Position numbers and translations under genes: made by a program
From: a bacterium
GTDB taxonomy: Bacteria; Patescibacteriota; UBA1384; 2-12-FULL-50-11
Reading direction: 5' to 3'
Assembly: GCA_021463485.1 (NCBI GenBank)
Contig: JAJTYJ010000002.1
Location: forward strand, 108,638-172,637
DNA: 64,000 bases
Part shown: piece after piece, positions 3,270 to 42,404 of the stretch
How positions within the stretch are numbered: position 1 is the first letter of the stretch
Layout of the letters: each line of letters opens with the position of its first letter
Notes under the pieces: generated by a model
The model's database searches: none
What the model was told of the DNA's origin: nothing
What the model saw: only the letters and a program-made list of their open reading frames with translations

Positions 3270-4231
3270 ACTTTTTCTTGCTGGGGTTTGGGTCGGTGGA
3301 ACCAATGTACGATCGCTAAAACCAAAAACATTACACCGATTCCAAGGGTAACGATACTAATATTGCCTAATGTAGTTTTTAGAATTTCCAAAACTGTGGC
3401 AACTATATCTGTAATTATAGGAGCAATTGCTGCAGCGTCGGAACCGCCAAAGAATTCACCAACTGCCCTAGCAATCCAATCCCAGGCAATTAAGCTGAAT
3501 CCAATCTGGAGCAAGCCAACAATAATAAATGTAACGGCTAGCGGTCTAAACGCTTTGCCGCGTAGTAACAACAGCATTAATGCAACGATTAACGCTGTTA
3601 ATCCCCAAACAATCGTGACGATTTGGTTAACCATTATTACTGCTTTGCGGGTACTTTTTAAGCCTTCGCTTGGGTTAGTGACGGAAATATTTGCCGGTAG
3701 GGTGTTGATCCCTTCTGTGGCACTTTTCTGAAAAATCCGCTCAATTTCGTTGTCTTTTACGTTACCTTCGGGAAGCTTGCAAGTTGGAAACTCTTTTTCA
3801 GGGTCCCAGCTACTGAGGTCTTTTTGCTGACAAACAGGTAGCGCGGCGTACTTAGCTAGAGCTTTTTGGGTAATTTCTTCGACGGCATCTTGTTCAACTG
3901 TTGTTAGGTCGTAAGTAAAATTAAGTTCATCCGATTTACCAGTTACATAGCCAAGCGTTACGGTTAAGTACTGCTCAAGCACTTTATAAAAGGTTTCTGC
4001 GTCGATGACATTAATAATTATTTCGGTCATCTCTTCTTTACTAAGCTTGGTTCCGTCCTGCGTTTCCTTTGGTACCATCGACTGGATTTGTCCGGTGAGC
4101 CTGCCGTATAGATTAGTCTTGCGCGACTGCTCAATTAAGAACTCGGGGTTCTCTAAATTTTTGGCTGTGTAGCCTAACGTTGATAGAAATAAGAGGATGA
4201 TTAGTAAGAAGCTAAGAAAGCTTTTTAGCAT
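3266..4231 (-). CDS. Hypothetical membrane protein
   Basis: The most likely start is the internal ATG (MLKSFLSFLLIILLFL…), which gives an N-terminal signal/TM. There are multiple C-terminal TM helices. The longer ORF-track start would overlap pgk. Confidence 0.45.
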   Translation of the reverse strand: MLKSFLSFLLIILLFLSTLGYTAKNLENPEFLIEQSRKTNLYGRLTGQIQSMVPKETQDGTKLSKEEMTEIIINVIDAETFYKVLEQYLTVTLGYVTGKSDELNFTYDLTTVEQDAVEEITQKALAKYAALPVCQQKDLSSWDPEKEFPTCKLPEGNVKDNEIERIFQKSATEGINTLPANISVTNPSEGLKSTRKAVIMVNQIVTIVWGLTALIVALMLLLLRGKAFRPLAVTFIIVGLLQIGFSLIAWDWIARAVGEFFGGSDAAAIAPIITDIVATVLEILKTTLGNISIVTLGIGVMFLVLAIVHWFHRPKPQQEKV

Positions 4232-4286
4232 AACTGTATTGTAGCACTGTGGGCGTTTCTGCAGATGGTTGATACACTGGTTAAAG

Positions 4287-5399
4287 ATGAAATCGCTCGA
4301 AGAGGCAAATATTTTTGGCAAGACTGTTTTGGTGCGCATCGGTGCCGATGTCCCGCTATCAGATTCAAACCCACCAAAAATTACTGATGACTCTAGGTTA
4401 AGAGTTCTTTTACCGACGCTTCAGTATTTAATCAACCGAAAATGTCGTGTCGTATTATGTGCACACCTGGGGAGGCCGAGCGGTAAGATTGATAAAACTT
4501 ACAGTTTGCGTCCTGTCTATCTTCGACTCTCAGCCTTATTGAAGCGACCAATAGTATTTGCGCCGACAATTTTTTCCGAGAAGACGCGATCAGCTGTCGA
4601 GGGGCTCGGTGACGGCGAACTATTGGGATTAGAGAATCTTCGCTTTGAACCAGGTGAAGAACGAAATTCGCGAACCTTCGCTCGCAAACTGTCTGAGTAC
4701 GGCGAAGTGTTCGTCAATGAGGCGTTTAACGTCGCTCATCACGAGGGCGCATCATTTATCGCTATTACCGAATTTTTACCTAGTTTCGCGGGTCTACAGT
4801 TTGAGAAAGAGATCTCAATAATGCGCCAACTCGTTATGCATCCGGCGCGACCTTTCGTGGTGGTTGTGGGAGGGGTAAAAATTGCCGACAAACTTCCTGT
4901 TTTAAGGTATTTATCTCAACATGCCGATAAGGTTCTGGTTGGTGGCGGAGTCGCAAACACCTTTCTCGCTGCGCTAGGTAAGGACGTTGGTAAATCTGTT
5001 GTTGATTCGGATTATTTTGACCAAGCTCGTGCAATTATCAGACGATCCAGGGGAAAGATTGTGTTACCTACTGACTTCGTAACTCATGAGGGCGTAATTC
5101 TAGATATCGGACACGAAACCACAAAAAATTACTTGAAATACTTAAAGACTGCCCAAACTATTTTCTGGAACGGGTCGCTCGGTAAGGCAGAAGATGATGA
5201 TTACGCTGTTGGATCAGAAGTCTTGGCCCATTTTATCGCCGACTCACCAGCTACAACAATTATTGGTGGCGGTAATACGGTGGAGATTTTCTCGAGATTA
5301 AATCTTCTACATGGTTTAACATTTGTTTCGACTGGCGGCGGCGCTACTCTTGAGCTGTTGGCCGGTCATCGCTTACCAGGAATTGTTGCGCTGGCCTAA
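4287..5399 (+). CDS. pgk: Phosphoglycerate kinase
   Basis: PGK hallmark LENLRFEPGEE and an N-terminal substrate-binding region are present. The true start is taken as the ATG (MKSLEE…), not the upstream TTG. Confidence 0.9.
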   Translation: MKSLEEANIFGKTVLVRIGADVPLSDSNPPKITDDSRLRVLLPTLQYLINRKCRVVLCAHLGRPSGKIDKTYSLRPVYLRLSALLKRPIVFAPTIFSEKTRSAVEGLGDGELLGLENLRFEPGEERNSRTFARKLSEYGEVFVNEAFNVAHHEGASFIAITEFLPSFAGLQFEKEISIMRQLVMHPARPFVVVVGGVKIADKLPVLRYLSQHADKVLVGGGVANTFLAALGKDVGKSVVDSDYFDQARAIIRRSRGKIVLPTDFVTHEGVILDIGHETTKNYLKYLKTAQTIFWNGSLGKAEDDDYAVGSEVLAHFIADSPATTIIGGGNTVEIFSRLNLLHGLTFVSTGGGATLELLAGHRLPGIVALA

Positions 5400-5526: not shown

Positions 5527-5898
5527 CTAAATCGTGCTGCTTGAGGCGAGAATATCAACCATCCAGTGGAAGTTGTCATCGGCGAGTGTTCCTTTCCATG
5601 ACCCTGTATTAATACCTTCAGCGGATGCCGCAAGTAACGAGTTAGCGTTCAACTCCGTACCTGTCACTAGATTGCCAGCAGTCGGAACAAACTGGTATGT
5701 ATTGGCTTTTGCGGTCGAAATTTTGGTTGGGCTTGGCACTTCAGGGTTATAAAGCAAATTCAATGAGGCAGTTGTAGTAACGAGAGCGACCAACATTAAA
5801 ATTGGGATTCGGAACGGATTATTCTTCCAGGTATCTCGGATAAACTCCACAGTTTCTTGATAAACACCATCTAATTTACGAGGCATTTTTGAGTGCAT
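5527..5898 (-). CDS. Hypothetical small membrane protein
   Basis: 123-aa ORF with one TM helix (ILMLVALVTTTASL). Confidence 0.35.
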   Translation of the reverse strand: MHSKMPRKLDGVYQETVEFIRDTWKNNPFRIPILMLVALVTTTASLNLLYNPEVPSPTKISTAKANTYQFVPTAGNLVTGTELNANSLLAASAEGINTGSWKGTLADDNFHWMVDILASSSTI

Positions 5899-6000: not shown

Positions 6001-7491
6001 TTAACCGGTGGTTACCGTCTGTATATTGGCTCGCTGTAAATTGAGCTGAACGTCCTCAGCCTCACCGATAATTCTCTTCTCGGCTGGTAGGTAGCCCGAC
6101 TTTGCCGCAATCACGGAGTGCTTGCCTGGTGGAACTAGGATAATAAATCGTCCGGCTTCGTCTGTTATTGTTGAGTGGATAAAATTCTGTTCGCCCTTGC
6201 TGTCACTTGTTACTTGAATAACTGCTTCACCAAGACCGATATCTACTGCTTGATCCTTTACTAAGCCGAACCGCCTGACTTTCGATGAGCCGAGAATCCG
6301 CATAACCCATAGCAAAGCGTACAGTGTTACTAATAAAATATTTTCCAATGTACGAGCTTGGTAAATCAAAATCAGCGATAAAAGGCTGCCAGCAATTAAA
6401 ACAATAAACTGAAATGTTGTAACTACAGAGACGAATTTAGTAAATTTGGCTACTTTTTTTAGCGAAGCAACCCGAACGTCTTCTCTGACAGCCAAGGCAA
6501 TATCAAAAGTTAGCGGTTCGGTGCGTTTGTCATCAATACTGATAAGTTGACTACGATAGGGGAGATAAAGCGGATTTACAACCTGAACCCAATACTGTCC
6601 CGGTTGGGGAGTTAGAAAGCCGAAACGACCAGTTTTATCAGTCATAATTCTTTTAATTTCCTTGCCTGATTGGAGGCTGAATAACGAAACAAAAACACCT
6701 GGAATCGGCACTTTCGTGACAGCGTCGCGAACCGTTCCCCATTTACGTGGCGGTTTGAAAAACGGAAACAAGCTGTAGAGCAGGTACTGTAAGCCCGGTA
6801 TTCCACCAAGTAGTGCGATCGAGATACTACTCGTAACGGGTGTTAGAATCGCCAATGACGGTACGATTGTTGCCAATCCAACAGCGCCAGGTAGTCCTTG
6901 GGGCACGGCATCAGCAATGTCTTGAATAACTTTATTAATTCGCTGGGGGATCGTCGGAGGCTCACTCGGCGGCTCAGTTGTTCCGCCACCGCCCGGCGGT
7001 GGGTCTTCGTCGTCAGGTGGGGGAGGCGGTGGGTCTTCTCCTCCACCGCCGACTGTTGTGAAGTTGACGGTTGGCTTATCTTTCAACGTTACCGTATCAA
7101 CTACAGCGGTGTAGGTTGAAAGGCCGATGGTGGTGGAACTAACGAAACAGGTGAGCCTACCGCTAGCGTTGGTCGTGCCGGTGTTCTGTTGAGTCGAAGT
7201 CTCGTTAGCAAGATCGCAGTCGATAAAATCGAGCAATCCGCGCGAGGAAGTAATGGTGACGAACTTATTCGGCAGCACTTGGTTAGCGGCGTTACGAGCA
7301 GTTACAACTAAGGTTGAGAGCGCGATGCCATCGGCAGGCACTGAAGTAGGGGCAGCGGTAAATGTTGACAGATCGTCGTCGACGTTTGGCAGCACGTTAG
7401 CGTTAACATCAATATTCGTTTGAGCTTGTACGCCGGAGCTAACAGCTAGCAGCAAGATTGAGGCAAGCGCTGCGCGCAGCACTTGTACCAT
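6001..7491 (-). CDS. Surface-cluster polytopic membrane protein: signal peptide, Ig-like (Big) domain, Pro/Gly-rich linker, two transthyretin/CarboxypepD_reg-like domains separated by TM helices
   Basis: N-terminal signal MVQVLRAALASILLLAVSSGVQA is followed by a PPPPPPDDEDPPPGGGG linker. The blocks GQYWVQVVNPLYLPYRS and GRFIILVPPGKHSVIAAKSGYLPAEKR resemble carboxypeptidase-regulatory/transthyretin folds. There are several hydrophobic helices. Its start overlaps the stop of the upstream gene (TAATG). Confidence 0.5.
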   Translation of the reverse strand: MVQVLRAALASILLLAVSSGVQAQTNIDVNANVLPNVDDDLSTFTAAPTSVPADGIALSTLVVTARNAANQVLPNKFVTITSSRGLLDFIDCDLANETSTQQNTGTTNASGRLTCFVSSTTIGLSTYTAVVDTVTLKDKPTVNFTTVGGGGEDPPPPPPDDEDPPPGGGGTTEPPSEPPTIPQRINKVIQDIADAVPQGLPGAVGLATIVPSLAILTPVTSSISIALLGGIPGLQYLLYSLFPFFKPPRKWGTVRDAVTKVPIPGVFVSLFSLQSGKEIKRIMTDKTGRFGFLTPQPGQYWVQVVNPLYLPYRSQLISIDDKRTEPLTFDIALAVREDVRVASLKKVAKFTKFVSVVTTFQFIVLIAGSLLSLILIYQARTLENILLVTLYALLWVMRILGSSKVRRFGLVKDQAVDIGLGEAVIQVTSDSKGEQNFIHSTITDEAGRFIILVPPGKHSVIAAKSGYLPAEKRIIGEAEDVQLNLQRANIQTVTTG

Positions 7492-8471
7492 TATTGAATA
7501 ATCCGTCGAGGCGGACGCGGCTGAACTTGTTGTGGCGGAATGGTATTGACGTACTCTTTAAGTTTGGCGCGTTTGCGACGTCGAGTAACGATGAGCGTGC
7601 TGATAATAAGAAGCAGCGCGATGATCGCGATAATCAGCCAAAGCGGAATAACTATAAAAGTTCGGTTAGCGACTAACTGCTGCTCTGGAAGCCCATAAGT
7701 TAACGCTAACGATGCGGTAAATTTACCCATTGTTTTCCAGTCGAACTCCCAAGTGTTGTTAAAGCGTCGCTTGCTCTCTGGTAGGACATTGCTGTTTCCC
7801 TCGTTAACTTTAAGCGTTTGAACGACGTTACCGGACCAGTTTCTTATCTTTATCTCGCCGACCGGCTTCGAGTGGATGTTGCCGACGTTATTAATGCGAG
7901 CTGAGAAATTCGCCGGCGGGCTAATCAGAAAGACCGGCGCGTCAAAATCTTCTAGTAATAGTTTTTCGGTAATATCGCCCGGAACTGTTACCAGCAGCAG
8001 TGTGCCGACCAAACCGACAACGCCAATTTGGCTTACGTCTTCGTCAAGTTTTGGCTCTTCGGTAGAAAAGAGGATTGCGCCGTAATGCCCGCCCGGTTCG
8101 GCGTTTGCTGGGGCGGTAATGGTAACCTCAAATTTTTCTTCTTCGTTTGGCTCGATCCGGAGGAACGGCTTTGAGAACGTTGCCCAACTCGAGAGTGCGT
8201 AGGTTGAGTATTTCTCTTCTTCAGTAAAAAAGACCGGTTTACCGCCGTCGTTATCGGTATGAAAATTCATAATCCGCGGATACAGCGTCATCGATCGAGT
8301 AATCGGATTAATCACCCGTACGGTTCTGGTGACTGACTGTCCGGGGCTAACGACAAACTCGTCTTTAACCGGAGTTACTGTAATACCCGCCGCTCCGTTT
8401 TGAGCAAATGTTGAGTTAGAAAACGTTGCTAGAGTTAACAGCAACAAGGTAGCTGCCAGGAATCTATGCAT
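7491..8471 (-). CDS. DUF916/DUF3324-like cell-surface protein with C-terminal membrane anchor (CscA-like topology)
   Basis: Signal peptide MHRFLAATLLLLTLATFSNSTFA, then a beta-rich ectodomain of about 270 aa, then a single C-terminal TM (IPLWLIIAIIALLLIISTLIV) followed by RRRKRAKLK and a Pro-rich tail. The family assignment is based on topology only. Confidence 0.4.
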   Translation of the reverse strand: MHRFLAATLLLLTLATFSNSTFAQNGAAGITVTPVKDEFVVSPGQSVTRTVRVINPITRSMTLYPRIMNFHTDNDGGKPVFFTEEEKYSTYALSSWATFSKPFLRIEPNEEEKFEVTITAPANAEPGGHYGAILFSTEEPKLDEDVSQIGVVGLVGTLLLVTVPGDITEKLLLEDFDAPVFLISPPANFSARINNVGNIHSKPVGEIKIRNWSGNVVQTLKVNEGNSNVLPESKRRFNNTWEFDWKTMGKFTASLALTYGLPEQQLVANRTFIVIPLWLIIAIIALLLIISTLIVTRRRKRAKLKEYVNTIPPQQVQPRPPRRIIQ

Positions 8472-9566
8472 TTAGAAAATCCCAGTACACACGTATGTAA
8501 TATTATCAGTGTAAGAACCAGCGTTTGCCAAACCGGAGACAGCCGCTTTATGCACAATCGTCAGCACTCGACTTGCCATCGGCCCGGATCCTGAAGCTAT
8601 CGGTGTCGCTGTTCGCAGCAGTCCACCTACCTGGTTACCAGACACATTATAGGGGCTTAAGGCAGAAAGAGCTGCACCTGAACCGCCAGATGTCGATCCT
8701 TGTATCCCGTAACCATCTACCCCGACAGAAAGTGTAGCGTCGGCTGATGCGATTAAGTACGTAGGTGACGAGCTTTTGTACAATCCAGGGTTAGTACCGC
8801 TACCTTCGTCGCGAACACTCACTGCCACCCCGCTCGCAGCGTTGGTGCTGATAGTTATTGTTGTGCTCGTGTCAGACGTAGAAATTGCACCAGTCGTCAG
8901 TGATGCAAAGGTTGTGGTTAGTCCAGTGAACGCGCAGGTAATTGACGGATCAACCGTAGCGTTAACTGTCACATCATTGTCAGCTACGATCTCGACAGCA
9001 ATCGAGCCAGAGTCGGCCATCGTACCGCCGATAAGAATCTTGGCGTCAGTAGCGTTTTGGGCAGCGGTTTGGTTGACGATCGTATTAGCTGCACCGCCAG
9101 CGTTGGTACCTGCTTCTAGTTGGATGCATCGTCCTGCCGCAACTGTGTCGGTGCCAGATGTAAATGTTACAACCTGTCCGGTAATGTCAAATCCCCAAGT
9201 AGTGCCTGAGGCTGTTAATGCGATAGTTTTATCGGAAAAACTCGCACATGACCCAGCAGCACTAACAGCGAAGTCCCAGTTAGAGGTGCTTTCTGCTGCA
9301 AGAGCAAATCCCGTAGGAAAGGTAATAGTAAAAGTCTGACCGGCTGTTATCCCAGTTGGTGTAATAAACTCGATTGTATGATCAGCATTCTGACTCTCTT
9401 TTAAGGTTGAGAGGGTGTCTTTGGCGCTGGTAACTTGTGCAGCGTATACGTACGATCTAACCGGAAAAAACGCAAGCAACAACGCCGCGATTAATAGGTA
9501 AGAAAACCTTCGATAATTCCCCTCGTTTCGGTTCATCTGAAATAAGTTTCTTTTTCCCTTGGGCAT
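8472..9566 (-). CDS. Secreted surface protein, paralog A of a 3-member family (conserved N-terminal and C-terminal domains, C-terminus …ITYVCTGIF)
   Basis: Signal peptide. It shares the N-terminal block (DTLSTLKES…H) and a roughly 180-aa C-terminal domain (…VDGYGIQGSTSGGSG…TIVHKAAVSGLA…YVCTGIF) with 9579-10688 and 10730-11818. Confidence 0.55.
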   Translation of the reverse strand: MPKGKRNLFQMNRNEGNYRRFSYLLIAALLLAFFPVRSYVYAAQVTSAKDTLSTLKESQNADHTIEFITPTGITAGQTFTITFPTGFALAAESTSNWDFAVSAAGSCASFSDKTIALTASGTTWGFDITGQVVTFTSGTDTVAAGRCIQLEAGTNAGGAANTIVNQTAAQNATDAKILIGGTMADSGSIAVEIVADNDVTVNATVDPSITCAFTGLTTTFASLTTGAISTSDTSTTITISTNAASGVAVSVRDEGSGTNPGLYKSSSPTYLIASADATLSVGVDGYGIQGSTSGGSGAALSALSPYNVSGNQVGGLLRTATPIASGSGPMASRVLTIVHKAAVSGLANAGSYTDNITYVCTGIF

Positions 9567-9578
9567 TTGTCAAGTTTA

Positions 9579-10688
9579 CTAAAAGATACCAGTACAAACG
9601 TACGTTAATGTATCTGTGTACGCGCCAGCGGCTGCCAAGCCAGAAACGGCTGCTTTATGAACAATTGTGACAACTCTACTGGCTACGGCACCAGTTGCGG
9701 AAGCTAAAGTTATTGGAGTTAATTCAAGGCCGCCAACATCATTACTTGTTTGATTATACCGAGCGGCAATAGCCACCGTTGCTCCTGAACCACCTGAGGT
9801 TGAGCCTTGAATCCCGAACCCATCTACGTCGTTTGTAAGTGTAGCAGTATCAGAGAATGTCGGACTCCCATCCGCTGAGCCAATCAAATACGTTGGTGAA
9901 CTACTCTTATATAATCCTGGATTACTGCCGTTACCAGCGTCACGCACAGATATGTTAAAGCCGTTCGCGGCATTAGTACTAACCGTTATAGTTGTATTTG
10001 TATCCGACGTTGCGACCGGTCCGGTCAGCGAAGCAAAAGTAGTTGTTAAACCGGTGAACGCGCAGGTAATTCTTGGATCAACCGTAGCGTTAACAGTTAC
10101 GTCGTTATCGGCAACAATCTCAACAGCGACGCTACCAGTGTCTGTATAGCCGCCACCTCCAGTTAGGGTAATAACACCGTCGGTACCGTTTTGAGCGGCC
10201 GTTTGGTTGGTAATTTGATCGTTGCCGGTTCCGCCAGTAGTGGCGTGTGTACCGATCTCAATTACTACTACGGATCCAGCTGCAATTGTTGCGTCACCAG
10301 TACAACGAGTAAAGGTGAAGCCGATCGGGTCGACGGTATCAACGGTTGTAATCGCGATTTCAAGTGTTGCACCGGTGCAACCGCCACTTGCTACAAGGTT
10401 TTGTTCCGCGCCGTCGTCGGTAATGTCAAAATCTTCTGGCTCCGTATTGGCAAAGCCTGAGTTACTAAACCCTGCCGGGAAATCTAACGTCAGTGTCTCG
10501 TCAGCCGCCCACCCGTCCGTGATAGTAAAAGTAAATGTATGATTAGCGACGACGCTTTCCTTAATGGTTGAGAGCGTGTCAGAAAATGACGTCACGTCAG
10601 CTGCCTGGGTTCTGGTAACAGGGAAACTGCTAACGAGCAGTATCGCGACAATAATTTTTCTTATGGAATTAAACGAAACCCCTCTCAT
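9579..10688 (-). CDS. Secreted surface protein, paralog B (C-terminus …LTYVCTGIF)
   Basis: Signal peptide MRGVSFNSIRKIIVAILLVSSFPVTRTQA. The N- and C-terminal domains align with paralogs A and C. The middle region is T/G/D-rich and variable. Confidence 0.55.
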   Translation of the reverse strand: MRGVSFNSIRKIIVAILLVSSFPVTRTQAADVTSFSDTLSTIKESVVANHTFTFTITDGWAADETLTLDFPAGFSNSGFANTEPEDFDITDDGAEQNLVASGGCTGATLEIAITTVDTVDPIGFTFTRCTGDATIAAGSVVVIEIGTHATTGGTGNDQITNQTAAQNGTDGVITLTGGGGYTDTGSVAVEIVADNDVTVNATVDPRITCAFTGLTTTFASLTGPVATSDTNTTITVSTNAANGFNISVRDAGNGSNPGLYKSSSPTYLIGSADGSPTFSDTATLTNDVDGFGIQGSTSGGSGATVAIAARYNQTSNDVGGLELTPITLASATGAVASRVVTIVHKAAVSGLAAAGAYTDTLTYVCTGIF

Positions 10689-10729
10689 CTACTTTCTAAC
10701 GTTATAACTAAATTACTCATATGTAAAGG

Positions 10730-11818
10730 CTAAAATATTCCGGTGCAAACGTATGTTACTGTATCGCTGTAGGCGCCTGACGGCGCGAGATTTGAAACAG
10801 CCATTTTATGTGTGACCGTAACGATGCCGTTATTGATCGGACCGGCAGTACTCGCTAACTGTTGGCTTGCTCCAGCGCCAACCTCTAACCCGCCGACGGT
10901 GTTGCCGGTTTGGTTGTAGCGCGTGGCGATAGAGAGAGTGGCGCTACCAGCGTCTCCTTGGGTAGCGGCGCCTTGAATGCCGAAGCCGTCAACGTTATTT
11001 GAGAGCGTAGCGGTGTCGGCAAACGACGAGTTGGCGGAGCCGATCAAATACGTCGGTGCGCTACCTTTATATAGTCCCGGACTAGTCCCGTTGCCGTTGT
11101 CGTAGACGCTAATACTCAGCCCATTTGGCGCGTTCGTACCAGCAGTAACGGTTGTATTAGTTGCAGCCGTAATTATTACGCCGGTAGCGTCGGGGAAAGT
11201 AACTGTTAGCCCGTTGAAGGCGCAGCTGATTCTTGGCAACACGGCAACGCTTACGGTTGCGTCGTTGTCAGCGACGATCTCAAGTGCTAACGTTCCCGAT
11301 CCGCCGAAGGTTCCGCCTAGCGTTACCGTTGGGTCGGTGTCGTTCTGAGCTGCGGTTTGGTTAATGATTTGGTCGTTTCCAGTAGCACTAAAGGTTGCGT
11401 GAGTACCGATTTCGATAACAATAGTTGAGGAGCTAGCGATGCTGGTACTGCCAGTACAGAGGGTAAATGTGAAAGCGCTGTTATTAATGGAGGTGATATC
11501 AATTTCGTTTGCGGAGCACAGCCCGTTTGCGGTTATAGCCTTATCGACGCCGTCGTCGGTAATGTCAAAATCTTCTGGCTCCGTATTGGCAAATCCGGTG
11601 GTATCGAAGCTATTCGGAAAGTCTATAACCAACGTCTCGCCCGCGTCCCAAGAGTCGTTAATCGTAAACGTTAACGTATGATTGGCAGCGGTACTTTCTT
11701 TGATTGTTGATAGCGTATCTGAGAAATTACTAACTGTCGCTGCAAGCGCAAATTGGTTCGTTGGAAATAGGGTAGTAACAACGAGCGAAGCAATACTGAA
11801 CGCTCGCAACCAACGCAT
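10730..11818 (-). CDS. Secreted surface protein, paralog C (C-terminus …VTYVCTGIF)
   Basis: Signal peptide. Its N-terminal block (VSNFSDTLSTIKESTAANHTLTFTINDSWDAGETL…FANTEPEDFDITDDG) is nearly identical to that of paralog B. The start overlaps the stop of the giant gene (TAATG). Confidence 0.55.
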   Translation of the reverse strand: MRWLRAFSIASLVVTTLFPTNQFALAATVSNFSDTLSTIKESTAANHTLTFTINDSWDAGETLVIDFPNSFDTTGFANTEPEDFDITDDGVDKAITANGLCSANEIDITSINNSAFTFTLCTGSTSIASSSTIVIEIGTHATFSATGNDQIINQTAAQNDTDPTVTLGGTFGGSGTLALEIVADNDATVSVAVLPRISCAFNGLTVTFPDATGVIITAATNTTVTAGTNAPNGLSISVYDNGNGTSPGLYKGSAPTYLIGSANSSFADTATLSNNVDGFGIQGAATQGDAGSATLSIATRYNQTGNTVGGLEVGAGASQQLASTAGPINNGIVTVTHKMAVSNLAPSGAYSDTVTYVCTGIF

Positions 11819-14800
11819 TAGAACGTTCCGGTAACGATATATAAGACTTCGGTCTGGTAATTTTTTGCAGCTTGCAAGGCATCAACAGCAACTTTGTGAG
11901 TGATGGTGAACACTTCGTTAGTAACTGGACCGGTCGCGCCAGTGACGGCGTCGGTGTGATCGGCGACGATATCGCCAAATGCTGCAGTAGCAAATGATGC
12001 ATACAGCGTGCCGCTACTGAATTTATTCGAGCCCTGAATTGTCGTGTCGTTACTTGTATAGCCGTAGCCGCAGTTCGAACCGCCCGTGCAGAATCCGCCC
12101 GGCCATGATCCAGGTGAAGCGTACGTACCACCCTGGAACATAGGGATAGTAAATGAACCGTTTGTTAGCAAGCCGGTGGCGTATTGCCTGATGACGTAAC
12201 CGCCGTAGGCGTTGGTACTGGTAGTTAGGTTGAGGGTTTTGCTATCAGTTCGATTATTTCCGTCGTTGAGGTTCGAGAACGTAACAGTGGTCGAACCAAG
12301 CGTTAAGCTGATAGTTGGCAAGACGTCCTGACCGTTGGAACTGTGAACGCTTGAGGTATTACTAGCGTTGTCGATTGCTCGAACGTTCACGTAGTAGCGC
12401 TGGTTTGTGTGTAGACTTAACCCCGCTTGTGTTGTGTCCTCGTTGGTTCCGTTATTTGTCCAAGTAAGTATATCGGTTCCGCCGGCTGTTGTACCGATCG
12501 ATACATCGTAACGCAGCAGTCCTGAGGCACCACAACTGAACGCATCCCAGTTGGCTGTTAATTCCTCGAGCGACCCGTCGTTAAACGCAGCGTCGACGTC
12601 TTCAACTAAGCCGTCGTATATTGTCCCAGCGTACGTGCAGGCAGTTGTATCTACGCCAAAGTCTCGAGCCGACTCAGCGTTACCGCCGTAGCTTACCCAA
12701 GATCCGTATACTCCGCCCTGATCTTTAACTCGTGCTTGCCAGTGGTACTCGCTCACGTCTGTTATTCCGCTAATCGTGACCGTAACGGTAACTGGTGTAC
12801 CGGAGTACGCAACGCCAGTTCCGCAAAGATCCTCGGTGTTACTGAAACCAGTGCCAAGTAAGTCTTTTTCAACGCATAGGTATAAAGTGTCGGAAGAATC
12901 AGTGTCTGAGGCTGTTGCTGTAAATTTAACACTCGTTTCATTGGTCCAACCTCCGGTTGCGATCACGGTATCGTTGGTTTTTTTCTGGGCTAAGTCGCTT
13001 GGCGCGTCCGGATTACTAAAGTTCCAATTTACGTTATTGCCACAATCAAAATTTGTTCCGTCGTTTGCCATGATCGTATTGCCGCTCGAGGCGTTCGATC
13101 GAGAGACGTTAACGTAACTAACCGCAGTTTGAGTGCCCGATACGTTCAAATTCCACGATCCGCTGACGGCGCTGTTGCGGAAGTATAGTCTGGTACCGAC
13201 GGCTTGACCGTTCCAGTTGATATTCGTCAGTGTGTACGTAGAACCGGAATTAAACTCTATGCGAGAGCTGGCAGTAGTGAAAACGGTGTTATTGGTTACT
13301 GTCGCTGAAGCAGCGAAGTCAATACCGGCGACAAATCCGGTTCTTTCGCAATCGGATGCGTTAGTGCCTGAGCTGTTAGTGATTGTAAGATTGTAAAATG
13401 AGCTGGACCCAGTCATTAACCCACTTAATGTTTGAGTACTCGTTCCGTTTAATACAACAGTTCCAGTATTAGCATTCAATACAGCATTATTGGTGTTAAC
13501 CCAGTTTCCGCCGACGTTTAGTGTTCCGGATCCGAGTGTCAGTATTGCTGTTGTTGTCCCAAAAGTTACATTACCAGTAACAGTTACCGTATAGCCGTTG
13601 ATATCTATCTCAGACGCGCGACTGCAACAACCAATTAGGAAGCTTGTGAATGAAGCGTTGCCCTGGAAAATTGTTTTAAAACCAGTGTTTTGCTCCGTTT
13701 GAAGACCAGAATTATATGTGAATGCGGGAATATTTTTATTGTTTGATCCGTATGGCGCATATGCGCCGTTACCAGTTCCCCAAGTTCCGGAAGGATTAAG
13801 GTTTAAGAAATTCGCGTTTGTACCAGAATTGTAGAGTAGTCTTGAGTTTAGATCGAATGTTCCCGTTCCTAGGTTGATTTGGTTTTCAACACCAAATGTT
13901 TGCATCATCCGTGTGGTGTTGCCCGATTGCCCAACTGTTAGGTTGTAAAATCGGTGCTGCCAGACGTTTGTTGATCCGGTAGTTATCGTTTTTGTCCCGG
14001 TACCGTTCATAACTACTGTCGACGTCCCTCGAACGAACGATGCGTCGTCAGCGCCAATAGCTGATGTATCCCAGTTACCAGAGACAGTAATGGTGGCGGC
14101 CCGTGCTTGGAACGTCCAGGTACCTGAAGTTCCTGTGAAGTTGTTATCGACCGTTAGGGAATAGTTTGATCCGTTAACAGTGTCATACACACCATTAGTG
14201 ATCGTAAAGTTGTTATTAACGTCTACGGCGGCAGTTGGGGTTAGAGTTCCGCCAGCGGCATTAAGAACCATATTATAAAGAGATTGTCCGTTGGGGGCAT
14301 AGCTAACGGTACCGGAAGTGTTTGTCCAAGTTAAGGTGGAGGTTCCTTCGGTTACCGTAAAAGTACCCGTGCCGTTAACGAATCTAACATTACCCTTAAT
14401 ATTGATATCCGCGCTTGACAAATTTAAAGAATGACTTCCACCGTTTGAAACTGGGAATAAAGCATTACTTGTTCCATTCTCAAGTGTAACGGTACTCGAA
14501 CCGAAGTTACTGGCGATAGCAGTCGTGTTAGAACTGTGACCGGTTGAAAATGATTTGGCTGTCAAGTTAAAGTTTTGTGTGTTGAAATTCGATCCAGCAC
14601 CGCCACTAGCCGCCCAAACAAGAACCGTCCCAGTTGTTGTTACGTTTCCCGAAAGGTTGAATGTAACCGTACTGGCCGTATCGGCACGTAGTAGGATATT
14701 CCAGGTGCCGTAGTTACCGCTGGCGATGGAGATGGTGCTGGCACTTTGCTTGCGCAAATGAAAGGTAGCATTTGAACCCGACAGAGTTGCTGAACCATCG

Positions 14801-17800
14801 ATAGATAGGTCGCTACCACTGGTTCTAAATAGCTCAAATTCGCAAGTTACAGAACAAGTCATAATCCCAGCATTAACGGTTAAGGTATTATAAACATCAG
14901 TTCGCGCAATTGTCATAGTTGTTGTTTGACTGGTCGAGGCAACACCAAGATTATGAAATTGAGTAAAGCCTCCTCCCGTTGATTTGATTTCACCTGTACC
15001 GGTAAGGTTAACTGTAGAGGCTCCCCGAGAAAAACTACTGGAATTACCCTTGTCCCAGTGTCGACCAACACTTATTGTTGAGCCATTTGCGGTAAAGGTT
15101 ACTGATGCGCTATTGGCTAAGGTAAAATCTCGCCCGACCGTGAGAGAATAGTTGGTTCCACTGGTGGAAAAGGTTCCCAAGCTGACAGTAAAATCGTTCT
15201 CTGTTTCAGTATTTGCTCCCAAAGTCCAGCCACCACCCGAACCGTTAAAAACTAAATGATTAAATTTGCCGGTTGAGCCGGATAGGGTGCCGCTGAGAGT
15301 CCTTCCGGTTGTGGTTGAGTTAAAGGTAGCTGTACTGGTGCCAGCGGTGAAAGTGCCGTCGTTCTGCCAGGAGCCGCTGACGTTGATAGCATTAGAATCG
15401 GCTATCCAAGTACCATCATTCTCGACGTGAACTGTAGTTACATCGGCTCCGCCGCCGGAGGCCGGGCGGAAAGTATTGCCGGTTACTATGTATAGCTCCT
15501 CGTCGGTATATGAGCCGAGCGAATCGACCGTTAAGTCGTCGCCGGCGGAGACATCGAAGAATATATCTTCATCGCTGGAAACGGAGTTGTCGTAAGAGCC
15601 AAGGTCAGTATTGCTCAACGTCTGGTTGTCGGCCGAACCAATCGTTAAATGGCGATGAAACAGAACCACGCCGGTAATATCACCGCTTCCGTCATATTTT
15701 GTGACGGCGACGGCCTCCTCGCTGTCGGTCGTTTCGCCGTTAATGAAAACTGTAATGATATCACCGCTATTGGGTTTATTAACACTAGAAATTTGCCAGG
15801 AACCATCGACGGTGGTGTCAACCTGCGCTTGGAGAGAGCCATTAACTGCAACAGCAATTTCATTAGCGCCGTCGTCGGTGCAGTCAGTAGTTTGATCGTA
15901 TTGGTCACAAGTACCGGAAATATTAATTGGAGGCGATACTGTGTAATCAATTAATAACCAAAGGGCTGTAACCCTAACGGTTCCACTTGAGCTAAGTACA
16001 TCTCGAACGCCAATTTGAGCAGAGTCTAATTGAGTATCAGTCCAAGCCGATGCCATTTCTGGCCTGGTGTAAGCGGTCAATGGATAAAGTTTTGGATCGG
16101 CGGTTCCATTAGTTGTCCAAGTAGTTGAGTCCGGTGAAAGGATAGTTGATTCAATAGCAATGCCCGACGACGATTCTTTCAGCCGGACTTTAAAGTCCTC
16201 CTGTGTGGCAGAACTTGTGCTAAATCTGACACCGACTGAAACTAAATTAACAGTATCGCTTGCCCCAATACTAGAATCAGTAATGTTGTATTCGTCGATA
16301 TCGTCGCTAGTTGTTTCCGATACGTAATTAGTGGCGTCATTGGGGGTTACCTCGTCAACACAAGCATAATTTCCGCCCGTACAGGTGCCGTTAGTTGTCC
16401 AGTTGGCAGCGGAACCGGCTGTGTTTGGCCGGAGATGAATAATTTTCCCGTCGCCTGGCCAAGTATTCTGATTTGTACCGATTCCCTTATTGACCGCAAT
16501 ATCATCCCAGATAAACCCTCCTTGATTGTTACTAACTTCTGAATTGTCACTTGCGTTGATCCCAATTCCCAAACGCGCAACCCCAGTTCCAATACTACGA
16601 GTTGTGGAGCTAGCAAAGGAAGTACCATCAATCCTTCCATCAACAATATGTGAACCCGACGAGCCAGTTGTATCTATCCGTAGTTCAATTCGGTACCAAG
16701 TGCCGGTTGATAGGGCCGATGAAGCCGAGCCAACCTGGCTATCTTCATCAAATAATTTCAGGGTATTGGACGAAGTGATTTTTATTGCTGCCCTTTGCAG
16801 GTTACTCGTATCCAAAAATGACATGATGGTGGCATCAAAAATATCCACAGCTGTAGATATCCGAAAGTAGGCACGACCATAGTAGTCCCCGTTCGTGTTG
16901 CTGGATTCAAAATAGTAGCGAACGTATTCCTGCCCGCCACCATTTTCAGTCTCAAGTGAGTATGCACCGGATCGAACTGTACTACTATTTATGGAGGGCG
17001 AGTTGGTAACGGCCGTTACTTCCACACCGGCAGTGGCCGAGTTGAGCTCTAACCCACTGGAGATTAATCTGCCACCGGTGAGAGAAACGTACTCTACTTG
17101 GAGCCAGATGGCCGTCATTTTAAAGCCGGTCCCGTTGGGATCATCGTTGCGAATACCAATTTGAGCAGAATCTAAATTGGTAGTAGTCCACTGGGTAGTG
17201 CTACTGCCCGGCAAGTCATAAATAGTAAGGGCGTTAAGACGAGCCGTATCGTCGTTGTTAGTCACATACCCGCCAATTAGATCATCAATTCCGGTGGAGG
17301 CACTCTCTTCAGTGGTACCGCTAGCGCTAGCTTTGATGCGAGTCTTGTAATTAACATCTCCATTGCCAATCGAGCAAGCCGGCTCTGGGATTACTGCTCC
17401 GCAGATTCCGAAACGAGCGCCGACAGAAACTAGTTTAATGTAATCCCCGGCAGAAATACCGGCGTTTGAGGACGACTCCAGGTTAACATCGTCAAGCTGG
17501 TTTTGGGTGGTACTGCGGATAAAGTCGGTGCTGTCGTTGGGGGTGACTTCATCGACGTCGTCGTAATCATTAGTATCACTGGGATAACCGCCCCAGGCGG
17601 TATTGTCTCCGTCGGCATCGGGTTGCATATGAACAATATTGCCTTCGCCCGGCCAGTTATCAGTTGAGCGGCCTGACGAATTGTTGACAGCAAGATCATC
17701 GAAAAATAAATCGGCCGTGGTCGAGTTTGCCACTCCCCATGTCCACCTATCCACGCCTGCTGCTAGATTCTCCGAAGACGATGTAGAGATTTGGGTACCG

Positions 17801-18423
17801 TCAAGCAACATCGTTGCAGTTGTCGTTGAAAGCGTAGTTGTATTAATATAGACCTCTAAGCGGTACCAGGTGTTTGTTGAAAGTGCTGAACTGGCGGAAC
17901 CAATGTTAGCATTATCCTCTTCATTTCTAAGCTGGAGAGTTGAGGAACTGCTCATGCGGACGCTGATTTTTCCGCTCGATCCATTACCAATTTGCATAAT
18001 ATAGGTGTCTGCACCAGGCGCGGTCGCAATTCTAATATATTGTCTAAACCAAAATTTGTTGCTTTGGGCGCTGTTAGCCCAAGTCTTGTAGATTGTTCCA
18101 GTTGAAGATGTGGGGTTTGCCCTAAATGCATAATCTCCGCTTCGCTTTGTTGAGCTAGAAACGGACACAGTTCCCGCTGATCCGGTAATCTCTACGTTGG
18201 CAGTAAGTGTGTTTAGTTCGGCGCCGCTCGACCAAAGCCGGGTAGCGCTAGCTGAACCAGCCTCACCGAGGATTGTTCGGGGAAAAACTCCATTAACAAT
18301 TAAACTGATGAGGAGCAAGAAAGTAATAGCTGCTGCACCCAAACGAGGCGCTTTTCTGACGATTTGGAGCCTGCGTAAATCCCGAAACAGGCCATCGAAG
18401 CGCTTTTTAGTTTTCCCCTCCAT
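11818..18423 (-). CDS. Giant (2201 aa) cell-surface protein: N-terminal signal anchor, two LamG/ConA-like jellyroll modules, long T/S/G/N-rich beta-repeat region, C-terminal domain shared with the three paralogs (…VLYIVTGTF)
   Basis: 6.6-kb uninterrupted ORF. There are internal duplicated modules (TWYRLEVYINTTT…FFDDLAVNN…NWPGEGNIVHMQP and TWYRIELRIDTTG…IWDDIAVNKG…TWPGDGKIIHLRP). The C-terminal ~170 aa match the paralog C-terminal domain (…ITHKVAVDALQAAKNYQTEVLYIVTGTF). Confidence 0.6.
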   Translation of the reverse strand: MEGKTKKRFDGLFRDLRRLQIVRKAPRLGAAAITFLLLISLIVNGVFPRTILGEAGSASATRLWSSGAELNTLTANVEITGSAGTVSVSSSTKRSGDYAFRANPTSSTGTIYKTWANSAQSNKFWFRQYIRIATAPGADTYIMQIGNGSSGKISVRMSSSSTLQLRNEEDNANIGSASSALSTNTWYRLEVYINTTTLSTTTATMLLDGTQISTSSSENLAAGVDRWTWGVANSTTADLFFDDLAVNNSSGRSTDNWPGEGNIVHMQPDADGDNTAWGGYPSDTNDYDDVDEVTPNDSTDFIRSTTQNQLDDVNLESSSNAGISAGDYIKLVSVGARFGICGAVIPEPACSIGNGDVNYKTRIKASASGTTEESASTGIDDLIGGYVTNNDDTARLNALTIYDLPGSSTTQWTTTNLDSAQIGIRNDDPNGTGFKMTAIWLQVEYVSLTGGRLISSGLELNSATAGVEVTAVTNSPSINSSTVRSGAYSLETENGGGQEYVRYYFESSNTNGDYYGRAYFRISTAVDIFDATIMSFLDTSNLQRAAIKITSSNTLKLFDEDSQVGSASSALSTGTWYRIELRIDTTGSSGSHIVDGRIDGTSFASSTTRSIGTGVARLGIGINASDNSEVSNNQGGFIWDDIAVNKGIGTNQNTWPGDGKIIHLRPNTAGSAANWTTNGTCTGGNYACVDEVTPNDATNYVSETTSDDIDEYNITDSSIGASDTVNLVSVGVRFSTSSATQEDFKVRLKESSSGIAIESTILSPDSTTWTTNGTADPKLYPLTAYTRPEMASAWTDTQLDSAQIGVRDVLSSSGTVRVTALWLLIDYTVSPPINISGTCDQYDQTTDCTDDGANEIAVAVNGSLQAQVDTTVDGSWQISSVNKPNSGDIITVFINGETTDSEEAVAVTKYDGSGDITGVVLFHRHLTIGSADNQTLSNTDLGSYDNSVSSDEDIFFDVSAGDDLTVDSLGSYTDEELYIVTGNTFRPASGGGADVTTVHVENDGTWIADSNAINVSGSWQNDGTFTAGTSTATFNSTTTGRTLSGTLSGSTGKFNHLVFNGSGGGWTLGANTETENDFTVSLGTFSTSGTNYSLTVGRDFTLANSASVTFTANGSTISVGRHWDKGNSSSFSRGASTVNLTGTGEIKSTGGGFTQFHNLGVASTSQTTTMTIARTDVYNTLTVNAGIMTCSVTCEFELFRTSGSDLSIDGSATLSGSNATFHLRKQSASTISIASGNYGTWNILLRADTASTVTFNLSGNVTTTGTVLVWAASGGAGSNFNTQNFNLTAKSFSTGHSSNTTAIASNFGSSTVTLENGTSNALFPVSNGGSHSLNLSSADINIKGNVRFVNGTGTFTVTEGTSTLTWTNTSGTVSYAPNGQSLYNMVLNAAGGTLTPTAAVDVNNNFTITNGVYDTVNGSNYSLTVDNNFTGTSGTWTFQARAATITVSGNWDTSAIGADDASFVRGTSTVVMNGTGTKTITTGSTNVWQHRFYNLTVGQSGNTTRMMQTFGVENQINLGTGTFDLNSRLLYNSGTNANFLNLNPSGTWGTGNGAYAPYGSNNKNIPAFTYNSGLQTEQNTGFKTIFQGNASFTSFLIGCCSRASEIDINGYTVTVTGNVTFGTTTAILTLGSGTLNVGGNWVNTNNAVLNANTGTVVLNGTSTQTLSGLMTGSSSFYNLTITNSSGTNASDCERTGFVAGIDFAASATVTNNTVFTTASSRIEFNSGSTYTLTNINWNGQAVGTRLYFRNSAVSGSWNLNVSGTQTAVSYVNVSRSNASSGNTIMANDGTNFDCGNNVNWNFSNPDAPSDLAQKKTNDTVIATGGWTNETSVKFTATASDTDSSDTLYLCVEKDLLGTGFSNTEDLCGTGVAYSGTPVTVTVTISGITDVSEYHWQARVKDQGGVYGSWVSYGGNAESARDFGVDTTACTYAGTIYDGLVEDVDAAFNDGSLEELTANWDAFSCGASGLLRYDVSIGTTAGGTDILTWTNNGTNEDTTQAGLSLHTNQRYYVNVRAIDNASNTSSVHSSNGQDVLPTISLTLGSTTVTFSNLNDGNNRTDSKTLNLTTSTNAYGGYVIRQYATGLLTNGSFTIPMFQGGTYASPGSWPGGFCTGGSNCGYGYTSNDTTIQGSNKFSSGTLYASFATAAFGDIVADHTDAVTGATGPVTNEVFTITHKVAVDALQAAKNYQTEVLYIVTGTF

Positions 18424-20944: not shown

Positions 20945-20986
20945 TGCGCTTAATTGCCATCGAGCGATATATGGTGTACCCTTTCT

Positions 20987-21760
20987 ATGAGAATAATGGC
21001 TAAGAAATGGGTTGTGGTTGCTGTCGCGATTGCTTTTATAACAGGCGTAGCTGCTGGTACCCTTACCAGGGTTGCTGATTATCGCGCATTTGACGAAAGT
21101 GGCTCGGTTGATTTAGAGACGTATGTCGACCGTCTTGGCGAGAAGTTTCTTAGTGAGTATGTAAAAAGACAACTCCAAGAAAGTGTACCAGCTACTTCGT
21201 TGAATAAGTTGAATAACTTTAATCAACCCAAGTTTACTAATTTCTTTATTCCCCATGCGCGTGCCCAACTTGGCTCATCTTTGCCGCGGGTTGGAGAAAC
21301 ACTGCCGGCCTGCTACTTACCAGATGGAAGCGAGATTCTATCCCAGGTGCTAGAAGAGGAAGACGAGCAACTGGAGATGTTTTGTGTAAAATTTAAACTA
21401 AACGGCACGATTAACTCGGAGTTATATGATGCCAAACCGATTTATGATGAGCAATATTTTATAGATAACGGGTTTAATCACTTAATTGGTGCCACTGAAT
21501 TTTGGGTTGGTTCCTGGGATTTTACCGTTACCGTAGAGAGGTTCAACCCTGACGACGACTGCAATAGCACTGTTCGCTACTCCAAAAGTTTCAAGGGGAA
21601 CGGTATATTTATGTTCGGTAACGAAATCATTGAACGACTTGAGGAAAGTATCGACAAGATCAAGAGTTTATTCAACTTAGAGTTACACTGTCAATCAAAT
21701 AAAACATTAGACTCAAGTTCGGGACTTTTAATTAAAAACCGTTGTTCTTATTGCAATTAG
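20987..21760 (+). CDS. Hypothetical secreted/membrane-anchored protein (Cys-rich C-terminus …CSYCN)
   Basis: The ORF-track start is TTG. A likelier start is the ATG for MRIMAKKW… or MAKKW…. There is an N-terminal TM/signal, VVVAVAIAFITGVAAG. Confidence 0.4.
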   Translation: MRIMAKKWVVVAVAIAFITGVAAGTLTRVADYRAFDESGSVDLETYVDRLGEKFLSEYVKRQLQESVPATSLNKLNNFNQPKFTNFFIPHARAQLGSSLPRVGETLPACYLPDGSEILSQVLEEEDEQLEMFCVKFKLNGTINSELYDAKPIYDEQYFIDNGFNHLIGATEFWVGSWDFTVTVERFNPDDDCNSTVRYSKSFKGNGIFMFGNEIIERLEESIDKIKSLFNLELHCQSNKTLDSSSGLLIKNRCSYCN

Positions 21761-24676: not shown

Positions 24677-25056
24677 TACAGACGTACTTTGCTGCTTTAA
24701 CAAGCGGGACCTTTGTTTTACCTACCACGGGAACAAAGGAGCGTAATCGCGAACATTTCGCGGTTACAAGAACAAACCAGCCGATGGACTGGCAAATTTC
24801 CATCCCTTTCTCGGTAAAACGAGAGAGTGCCAAACAATTCCAAAAAAACAAAACAGTATGTCAGCTGAAATGATTTATCATTTCGCTCGTAAGGTTCAGT
24901 AGGCTTTTATGTGAGTTAAATCTCAAAGAGTTTGACGAAGACGGTTTCGGCCGTCGGACACAAATTTCTTACCAAAAGGTAAGAGTTTGATCTGAGCACA
25001 ATTCTTCTGAAGAGTGCGAAGACAAACTCTCATAAAAATCCCTACAGGAATTTTTA

Positions 25057-26505
<1,449 letters not shown>

Positions 26506-32273: not shown

Positions 32274-32346
32274 GGGCCGTTAGCTCATTTGGTAGAGCGC
32301 CGCATTTGCACTGCGGAGGTGTGGGGTTCGAATCCCCAACGGTCCA
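32274..32346 (+). tRNA. tRNA-Ala (anticodon UGC)
   Basis: Cloverleaf: acceptor GGGCCGT/ACGGTCC with the G3:U70 Ala identity pair, anticodon loop TTTGCAC, T-arm TGGGG-TTCGAAT-CCCCA. 73 nt, no encoded CCA. Confidence 0.9.
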
Positions 32347-32354
32347 CAACAAAA

Positions 32355-38889: not shown

Positions 38890-41838
<2,949 letters not shown>

Positions 41839-42391: not shown

Positions 42392-42404
42392 ATAAAGAGT
42401 TTAA

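Follow-up and report, generated by a model that had tools for sequence, protein, structure and literature searches.

A probable Pam-type pilus operon with a giant, lectin-like candidate tip adhesin in a Berkelbacteria-like CPR bacterium

Introduction

Six consecutive genes on the minus strand of a 64,000-nucleotide stretch of bacterial DNA (GenBank assembly GCA_021463485.1, contig JAJTYJ010000002.1, positions 108,638 to 172,637; hereafter the window) most probably constitute a divergent Pam-type pilus operon of a Berkelbacteria-like bacterium of the candidate phyla radiation (CPR, Patescibacteria). CPR bacteria are mostly uncultured episymbionts whose attachment to their hosts is largely unexplained. 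One candidate for host contact among them, described recently, is the Pam pilus, and the locus in the window extends the system to Berkelbacteria-type genomes. Its 2201-aa giant offers an explicit candidate recognition module, in which ConA/LamG-like lectin domains are fused to a pilin acceptor domain. The recurrence of such giant, lectin-like probable tips in CPR loci and the homology of the chaperone to WxLIP/CscA proteins both go beyond the published description of the system.

That description is due to Troman et al. (bioRxiv 10.64898/2026.03.03.709456), who solved two filaments (PamA and PamB) of the CPR bacterium Ca. Mycosynbacter amalyticus by cryo-electron microscopy (cryo-EM) in 2026. 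The system comprises the pilins PamA/B/E, a tip protein (PamT) consisting of the C-terminal domain (CTD) only, the PapD/FimC-like chaperones PamC/D with a C-terminal transmembrane (TM) helix, and the TM-anchored terminator PamR. In PamA and PamB the inter-domain linker, which is among the most conserved regions, is the donated strand, and PamA has paired cysteines. The lineages reported there are mainly Saccharimonadia and Microgenomatia; host recognition by the pili is unexplained according to the preprint, and the PamT of M. amalyticus is devoid of an adhesin part (bioRxiv 10.64898/2026.03.03.709456). One of the pilins of the window matches the NCBIfam model NF058581 (CPR_Pam_pilin_C, Pam pilus system pilin subunit). 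The initial annotation of the window had taken the locus for an undescribed complex, a reading that fails in the face of matches to pilins: the pilin-type proteins belong to a family that has been seen by cryo-EM and is represented by NCBIfam models. Its view of the locus as a coherent one for cell-surface assembly, and as a good candidate for attachment to a host, is supported.

The six genes, with the parts on which the argument turns, are as follows (window coordinates).

11818..18423, minus strand: open reading frame (ORF) of the 2201-aa giant, proposed distal tip adhesin
11821..12318, minus strand: CTD of the giant (residues 2036-2201), acceptor-type domain
10730..11818, minus strand: pilin 1, 362 aa, matched by N-terminal domain (NTD) and CTD profiles; proposed adaptor adjoining the tip
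11225-11269, minus strand: donor strand of pilin 1, DNDATVSVAVLPRIS, a distinct variant
9579..10688, minus strand: pilin 2, 369 aa, with NTD beta-sandwich, linker/donor strand and CTD; proposed shaft subunit
10065-10109, minus strand: linker/donor strand of pilin 2, DNDVTVNATVDPRIT
8472..9566, minus strand: pilin 3, 364 aa, matched by NTD and CTD profiles; proposed shaft subunit
8937-8981, minus strand: donor strand of pilin 3, DNDVTVNATVDPSIT
7491..8471, minus strand: 326-aa membrane-anchored chaperone of PamC/PamD type, DUF916/WxLIP family
6001..7491, minus strand: 496-aa polytopic membrane protein, proposed pilus base/anchor

Pilin paralogs and membership of the Pam family

The three proteins of about 365 aa that follow the giant are paralogs, as had been noted, with pairwise identities of 48-59%. 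Each is a two-domain pilin composed of an NTD beta-sandwich, a conserved linker and a C-terminal Pam-pilin domain; NTD and CTD profiles match all three, and each has four cysteines, two per domain. The AlphaFold2 (AF2) model of pilin 2, built on an alignment of its homologs, reaches a mean predicted local distance difference test (pLDDT) score of 92.4 and consists of two beta domains, with residues 189-206 between them lacking regular secondary structure. This linker, D-N-D-V-T-V-N-A-T-V-D-P-[SR]-I-T (DNDVTVNATVDP), is strongly conserved in nearly all 58 members of the family and is presumed to be the donor strand. The variant carried by pilin 1 is kept in P0049 and in P0042, the pilin that comes first behind the giant in genome CP066697.

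Pilin 3 as a whole protein matches NF058581 weakly (E 3.6e-4) over the full length of the model, as does pilin 2 (E 4.8e-4), and the CTD of pilin 3 alone reaches E 1.4e-5. Taken together, the CTDs of the three paralogs (~155 aa) and the last ~160 aa of the giant span essentially the whole model, with E-values from 3.6e-6 to 5.6e-4. Homologs retrieved with pilin 2 were all Patescibacteria, Berkelbacteria being the nearest, followed by Woykebacteria and others; 41 of the 58 aligned homologs match NF058581 (best 8e-37) and nine match the PamT model NF058579 (best 1.1e-25). Transitive homology of this kind places the locus, at the level of sequence families, within the Pam family. Pfam contains almost nothing for the pilins and the giant. 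Fold searches against the PDB returned generic Ig/pilin folds and were uninformative, and searches of PDB chains with single pilin and chaperone sequences and with the chaperone profile gave chance matches alone; the PDB copy used was without PamA and PamB. The window proteins, annotated as hypothetical, lie under the thresholds of NCBIfam and Pfam, so the models could be broadened.

Association of pilins and chaperones across CPR genomes

An alignment of the chaperone was scanned against one genome per GTDB species, which yielded 531 relatives; the best 80 loci were analysed by translating all of their ORFs and searching them with our own profiles. Almost all of these loci come from Patescibacteria (Berkelbacteria, Saccharibacteria, Falkowbacteria, Uhrbacteria, Shapirobacteria, Nomurabacteria and others). 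In this set, selected through the chaperone, pilin and chaperone genes are adjacent almost universally: an ORF with a pilin CTD is present in 79 of the 80 loci, and in 73 it ends immediately upstream of the chaperone gene, with both genes on one strand. The order giant, three pilins, chaperone and Big_1 protein recurs in the complete 768-kb Berkelbacteria genome CP066697. Two Saccharimonadia loci recovered through the window chaperone profile contain pilins scoring 153-168 bits on NF058581 (cut-off 55), which means that bona fide Pam loci use the chaperone family of the window.

Architectural variation is seen within this set. Three tandem chaperone paralogs follow the pilins in six loci of Falkowbacteria/Parcubacteria type (L043, L044, L050, L058, L070 and L077) and, except in L070, which lies on a short contig, they are followed by a ~550-650-aa protein that has a domain resembling the pilin NTD and neither a CTD nor a clear donor motif. 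These loci represent a further architectural variant of the system. Seven CPR-type loci (L018, L019, L031, L041, L042, L050 and L074) were found in metagenome-assembled genomes titled Nanoarchaeia, Gammaproteobacteria, Magnetospirillaceae or Vicinamibacterales; binning or labelling errors are a more likely explanation for these titles than real occurrence outside CPR.

The giant as candidate tip adhesin

The giant has an N-terminal signal/anchor segment (residues 28-46, by hydropathy), and two ConA/LamG-like modules (approximately residues 56-260 and 471-690) lie in its N-terminal third. They match Laminin_G_3 (E 0.003) and the Cip1-like family Polysacc_lyase-like, the latter with 28.7 bits, above the Pfam gathering threshold (GA) of 27. 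It further has a repetitive middle rich in Thr, Asn and Gly, Ig/fn3-like domains and, at its C-terminus, the Pam-pilin CTD. The last 166 aa form the domain that also makes up the C-terminal half of each paralog, aligning full-length to positions 1-162 of our CTD profile with 72.8 bits, and the giant was recovered at E 6.9e-20 when this profile was searched against all ORFs of the window. Against NF058581, the giant CTD covers positions 3-148 of 148 (E 3.6e-6, 27.1 bits, cut-off 55).

A position-specific scoring matrix (PSSM) of the donor strand detected no donor motif ahead of this CTD; the best scores within the giant, up to 9.8 bits, fall in the repetitive middle, far from it. The presence of an acceptor domain together with the absence of a donor strand would leave the distal end as the exclusive position for the giant, which is probably a lectin-like distal tip adhesin. 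The tip adhesins FimH and PapG combine a lectin part with an acceptor-only pilin domain, and the giant follows the same logic at 2201 aa. Orthologous giants stand ahead of the pilins in L001, L003, L004, L006, L016 and L075. More broadly, an ORF of at least 450 aa ending in the CTD occurs in 20 of the 80 loci, a dozen of them encoding giants of at least 2000 aa, and this recurrence makes host-specificity hypotheses testable by comparison of tip domains.

The chaperone and its kinship to WxLIP/CscA

The 326-aa product is a two-Ig-domain WxLIP/PapD-like protein with a C-terminal membrane helix. Its signal peptide precedes two beta-sandwich domains of Ig type, which are followed by a TM helix (approximately residues 272-300; 7572-7658) and the basic tail RRRKRAKLK, so that the single C-terminal TM segment and basic tail described earlier are borne out. 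Its AF2 model, with two beta-sandwiches and a helix at 277-308, resembles FimC, CsuC and CfaA, and chaperones of chaperone-usher systems are matched over both domains. One conserved strand of unusual hydrophobicity, VGLVGTLLLVTVPG (within 7971-8036), is a candidate for the complementing strand.

The link to DUF916 drawn in the initial annotation was right, and it reflects homology to WxLIP/CscA. Among the homologs of the chaperone, 27 of 51 match PF06030 (DUF916), and a profile of the CPR chaperones aligned with three WxLIPs at a probability of 97.0% (hhalign; E 1e-10, 227 columns), compared with 43% against one WxLIP sequence alone. With such a match extending over both domains, homology between CPR Pam-type chaperones and Firmicute WxLIP/CscA is established at the level of profile comparison. 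The Pfam family DUF3324 was never reported for the window proteins or the relatives scanned. This kinship ties a poorly understood Gram-positive virulence/adhesion cluster to a structurally solved pilus and suggests strand complementation in WxL clusters.

The 496-aa membrane protein as candidate anchor

The last gene encodes a polytopic protein with Big and transthyretin-like domains, as had been recognized: Big_1 and two CarboxypepD_reg domains exceed Pfam cut-offs, and several hydrophobic segments are present. A signal peptide is followed by a mature N-terminal strand, Big_1, a second strand and a linker rich in Pro and Gly; two TM pairs come next, each with a CarboxypepD_reg domain after it. 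The parts are located as follows.

7378-7422, minus strand: mature N-terminal strand, QTNIDVNANVLPNVD
7057-7368, minus strand: Big_1 (Pfam)
7054-7083, minus strand: strand KDKPTVNFTT
6502-6738, minus strand: first CarboxypepD_reg (Pfam)
~6037-6279, minus strand: second CarboxypepD_reg (Pfam)

Homologs come after the chaperone in the Berkelbacteria-type loci L001-L006 and L009. In the family alignment they share a core made of the signal peptide, a mature N-terminal strand Q-x-x-[IV]-x-A-[TN]-V (also seen as a conserved [IV]-x-V-N-A-x-V), Big_1, the motif D-K-P-x-V-x-F-T, the Pro/Gly-rich linker and a TM anchor, to which the window protein and that of L006 add the two TM pairs, each with its CarboxypepD_reg. 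The mature N-terminus of the window protein, QTNIDVNANVLP, resembles the pilin donor strand V-T-V-N-A-T-V-D-P. A 15-column donor-strand hidden Markov model did not match the 496-aa protein, and in some homologs the second strand, after Big_1, outscores the mature N-terminus on the donor PSSM.

In L042, L071 and L072, from other CPR lineages, the chaperone gene is followed by one for a protein of ~1200 aa that has a pilin NTD and a strong donor motif (26.5-28.7 bits on the PSSM, against a background maximum of 18) and lacks a CTD. Judged by their domain content, these proteins are membrane-anchored, donor-only subunits, and their C-terminal module is homologous to the TM and CarboxypepD_reg region of the 496-aa protein. 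On these grounds we suggest, with modest confidence, that the fibre is terminated and anchored by the 496-aa protein, the role proposed for PamR; this is the weakest of our assignments. Elsewhere in the window, a 471-aa protein (27580-28995, minus strand) combines CarboxypepD_reg with a phosphodiester glycosidase (NAGPA) domain; the fold family is shared with the 496-aa protein, and phmmer searches with the latter (E up to 0.01) did not match it.

Comparison with known systems and alternative readings

The locus shares with the Pam system its two-domain pilins (NTD beta-sandwich, linker and C-terminal truncated-Ig domain), paired cysteines, several paralogs per operon, a PapD/FimC-like chaperone with a C-terminal TM helix beside the pilins, the absence of an usher, an acceptor-only tip and restriction to CPR. 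It differs in its Berkelbacteria-like lineage and in the tip, a multidomain lectin-like giant with ~2000 aa of extra domains where PamT is single-domain. One chaperone is encoded, whereas the Pam system has two (PamC/D), and the candidate anchor consists of Big_1 with polytopic TM/CarboxypepD_reg regions.

Several points weigh against assigning the locus to a Pam pilus. On NF058581 the window proteins score 20.0-27.1 bits, under the curated cut-off of 55 bits, so their family membership rests on transitive homology and context, and the window chaperone scores 23.0 bits on PF06030, under the GA of 27.3. The 496-aa protein is by Pfam not RbmA-like, unlike PamR, and QTNIDVNANVLP scores 8.6 bits on the ungapped donor PSSM (rank 15 of 36,392 positions), in the upper background range and thus suggestive. 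The locus lies between PGK/TIM and trigger factor/ClpP genes and not by the ATP synthase genes stressed in the preprint, which is itself unreviewed. Donor-strand exchange, finally, is for this locus inferred.

Among other pili, the archaic and alternate chaperone-usher systems (Csu, CFA/I, Ecp) are similar in that an incomplete Ig-like pilin domain is completed by a strand of the neighbouring subunit (Troman et al., bioRxiv 10.64898/2026.03.03.709456). The window system differs in having no usher or outer membrane, a membrane-anchored chaperone, and a donor strand that is an internal inter-domain linker. It is extremely improbable that the locus encodes a classical pilus of another kind, be it chaperone-usher, sortase-dependent or type IV. 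Such a reading could appeal to the resemblance of the chaperone model to FimC, CsuC and CfaA and to the weak SCPU and DUF4402 matches, which are the commonest ones among the CTD segments. No usher-like outer-membrane protein occurs among the six products, however, the chaperone is TM-anchored, unlike the periplasmic PapD, and the donor strand is not an N-terminal extension; Pfam PapD and fimbrial families were not reported for any of the six. The giant and the three pilins end in ...TGIF/TGTF with no LPXTG, no product resembles a sortase, and the pilins have ordinary signal peptides rather than type IV prepilin leaders. Type IV, sortase-dependent and classical chaperone-usher pili were rejected on these grounds, the prepilin leaders, LPXTG/sortase and usher all being missing among the six products. 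TasA/TapA and other Gram-positive or archaeal donor-strand fibres have a different subunit fold and different accessory proteins, with no DUF916-type chaperone, and the likeness to them is generic. Very unlikely, too, is the reading that independent surface adhesins or S-layer-like proteins are loosely clustered here and unconnected in their assembly, the shared CTD being a wall- or membrane-binding module. The near-absence of Pfam matches for the pilins and the giant and the generic Ig-like character of the fold matches would suit it; the strict adjacency of a pilin-domain gene and the chaperone in 73 of 80 independent CPR loci, the six-gene synteny conserved in CP066697, the overlapping start and stop codons and the match of the chaperone fold to chaperone-usher chaperones over both domains all speak against it.

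A more serious comparison is with the Csc/WxL clusters of Firmicutes. These consist of small WxL proteins, a large adhesin-like protein with a terminal WxL domain and a WxLIP (DUF916-DUF3324-TM) (PMC1534035, PMC9772566, PMC10599100; PDB 9i1y); in the Csc nomenclature, CscA is the WxLIP, CscB the small and CscC the large WxL protein, and CscD carries LPXTG (PMC1534035, PMC9772566, PMC10599100). AF2 predicts that a hairpin of DUF916 inserts into WxL, and WxL proteins are thought to be peptidoglycan-bound and not filamentous (PMC1534035, PMC9772566, PMC10599100; PDB 9i1y). The Csc likeness proposed initially stands as far as cluster logic is concerned, the window having small proteins, a large adhesin-like protein ending in the same CTD and a TM-anchored DUF916 protein (compare PMC10599100, PMC9772566), with strand insertion by the DUF916 protein predicted for WxL too; the small proteins of the window differ in carrying an extra NTD and the donor linker. 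Membership of the WxL family does not stand. The three pilin CTDs contain no Trp, the giant CTD has one outside any W-x-L motif, and PF13731 (WxL) was not reported for the 58 full-length family members (E up to 0.1) and, for the 130 CTD segments (E up to 1), was not among the families listed, which were 25 of 38. Nor is there an LPXTG CscD partner among the six products: the subunits end as given above, the chaperone in a TM helix and basic tail, and the 496-aa protein in a soluble domain. WxL membership was rejected for want of the W-x-L motif, PF13731 matches and an LPXTG CscD, and the earlier observation that WxL, LPXTG, SLH and choline-binding motifs are missing holds, no such Pfam family having been reported for any of the six proteins or for the relatives scanned.

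A distant relationship of the domains is another matter. Comparison of the CTD with 20-24 WxL domains (hhalign) gave scores of 17.7-22.2 (P 0.008-0.05, probability 1-5%), which are not significant, and these exceed all 30 column shuffles (maxima 14.0 and 13.3) and the reversed controls (13.4 and 13.8). In the relaxed alignment, which is collinear, VsTNAxnGYxvtV is paired with vtDATGtGxGWxVtV (WxL motif 1) and AGsYxxtLTYiaT with AtxYxSxiTYtivtGP (WxL motif 2). Homology of the Pam pilin CTD and the WxL domain is thus no more than suggested, a moderately likely hypothesis.

The locus might accordingly be read as a non-filamentous Csc/WxL-like complex, in which the DUF916 protein would hold the small proteins and the giant at the surface by strand insertion with no polymerisation. 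The homology of the chaperone family to WxLIP/CscA, the parallel architecture, the predicted hairpin insertion and the weak collinear CTD-WxL similarity (score 22.2, P 0.008; highest shuffle score 13.3) count in its favour, and yet we regard it as unlikely. The most conserved element of the pilins is the inter-domain linker, which is the donated strand in solved PamA and PamB; relatives score far over the cut-off on the Pam pilin model, whose family has been seen as filaments by cryo-EM; and an ordered polymer accounts better than a static complex for three tandem pilins accompanied by donor-only and acceptor-only subunits. The missing W-x-L motifs, PF13731 matches and LPXTG partner weigh in the same direction.

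A Pam-type pilus is the reading that we prefer, and it leaves room for a deeper connection. Pam pili and Csc/WxL clusters may represent two lines of a single ancient assembly system of monoderm bacteria that does without an usher, at whose core a membrane-anchored DUF916-DUF3324 chaperone would strand-complement homologous CTD/WxL domains on small subunits and giants; we put this forward tentatively, as an idea somewhat easier to doubt than to believe. If it were true, WxL proteins might be held or polymerised by donor-strand complementation and not by peptidoglycan binding alone, and the giant CTD-bearing proteins, present in roughly one in four of the CPR loci surveyed, would serve episymbionts as host-specific tip adhesins. 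The Pam preprint makes no mention of WxL or DUF916 (bioRxiv 10.64898/2026.03.03.709456), and the literature searched contained no paper tying WxL clusters to donor-strand mechanisms or Pam pili.

The WxL comparators used here were real clusters from pXO1 (L083:27943-29704), a Virgibacillus plasmid (L084:6965-10523) and a Listeria plasmid (L085:6719-10079), all typed as conjugative or mobilizable. Their WxL and DUF916 genes lie near conjugation genes (CpaF/VirB11, VirD4-like, TrbL and PrgI-family), and the Listeria cluster adjoins a thioester-domain adhesin. This setting suggests a role of plasmid WxL and DUF916 clusters in mating-pair adhesion.

Proposed assembly mechanism

Modelled on the solved PamA/PamB filaments and on chaperone-usher logic, the locus would specify a chaperone-assisted, usher-less, donor-strand-exchange filament of CPR/Patescibacteria. 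Subunits would be exported via Sec, and the membrane-anchored chaperone would cap the open CTD groove of each newly secreted one. The linker strand D-N-D-V-T-V-N-A-T-V-D-P of the next subunit would then oust the chaperone and complete the fold of the previous subunit, so that the fibre would grow from its base. At the tip, the giant would present its two ConA/LamG-like lectin modules on a long stalk for binding to the host surface. Pilin 1 is the likely tip adaptor, being translationally coupled to the giant (TAATG) and having its own conserved donor variant DNDATVSVAVLPRIS; DNDATVSVAVLP is the linker strand proposed for the CTD groove of the giant. Pilins 2 and 3 would form the shaft. The 496-aa protein would offer the last donor strand with no acceptor domain, thereby stopping growth and tying the fibre to the membrane, which is the weakest step of the scheme.

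Gene junctions and flanking genes

The six-gene minus-strand cluster lies where the initial annotation had placed it, and the TAATG overlaps at 11818 (giant/pilin 1) and 7491 (chaperone/496-aa protein) are present. Pilin 3 and the chaperone abut with no intervening nucleotide (8472/8471, TAAATG). The claim of 0-1 nt at every junction does not hold: three of the five junctions are that tight, and spacers of 41 nt and 12 nt separate pilin 1 from pilin 2 and pilin 2 from pilin 3, respectively. All six products have Sec-type N-terminal hydrophobic segments by hydropathy. Scans for sigma-70 promoters and intrinsic terminators gave counts at or below shuffle expectation, by which a single operon is neither backed nor contradicted.

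By Pfam, the locus is flanked by housekeeping genes, with a class II aminoacyl-tRNA synthetase, TIM and PGK to one side of it and trigger factor and ClpP to the other, which places it on the chromosome. A 123-aa ORF with one hydrophobic segment (5527-5898, likewise on the minus strand) lies some 100 nt downstream of the gene for the 496-aa protein. It has no family match in Pfam or NCBIfam, and the syntenic CP066697 locus lacks it, having two beta-lactamase-like genes and a second giant at that place.

Other features of the window

Four further ORFs have no Pfam match (E up to 0.001): 2304-3269 (plus strand, 321 aa), 3266-4339 (minus, 357 aa), 20954-21760 (plus, 268 aa) and 23077-24615 (minus, 512 aa). 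The listed TTG start of PGK (4269) overlaps the second of these by ~70 nt, and the true start is therefore probably further downstream. The rRNA genes, in which model coverage revealed no obvious insertions, are all on the plus strand: 16S at 25052-26503, 23S at 38898-41835 and 5S at 42275-42392. The 16S and 23S genes are unlinked, being separated by ~12.4 kb with protein-coding ORFs. A tRNA-Ile(GAT) gene (26706-26780, minus strand) closely follows the 16S gene, in opposite orientation to it, and a tRNA-Ala(TGC) gene (32274-32347, plus strand) comes ~6 kb further on.

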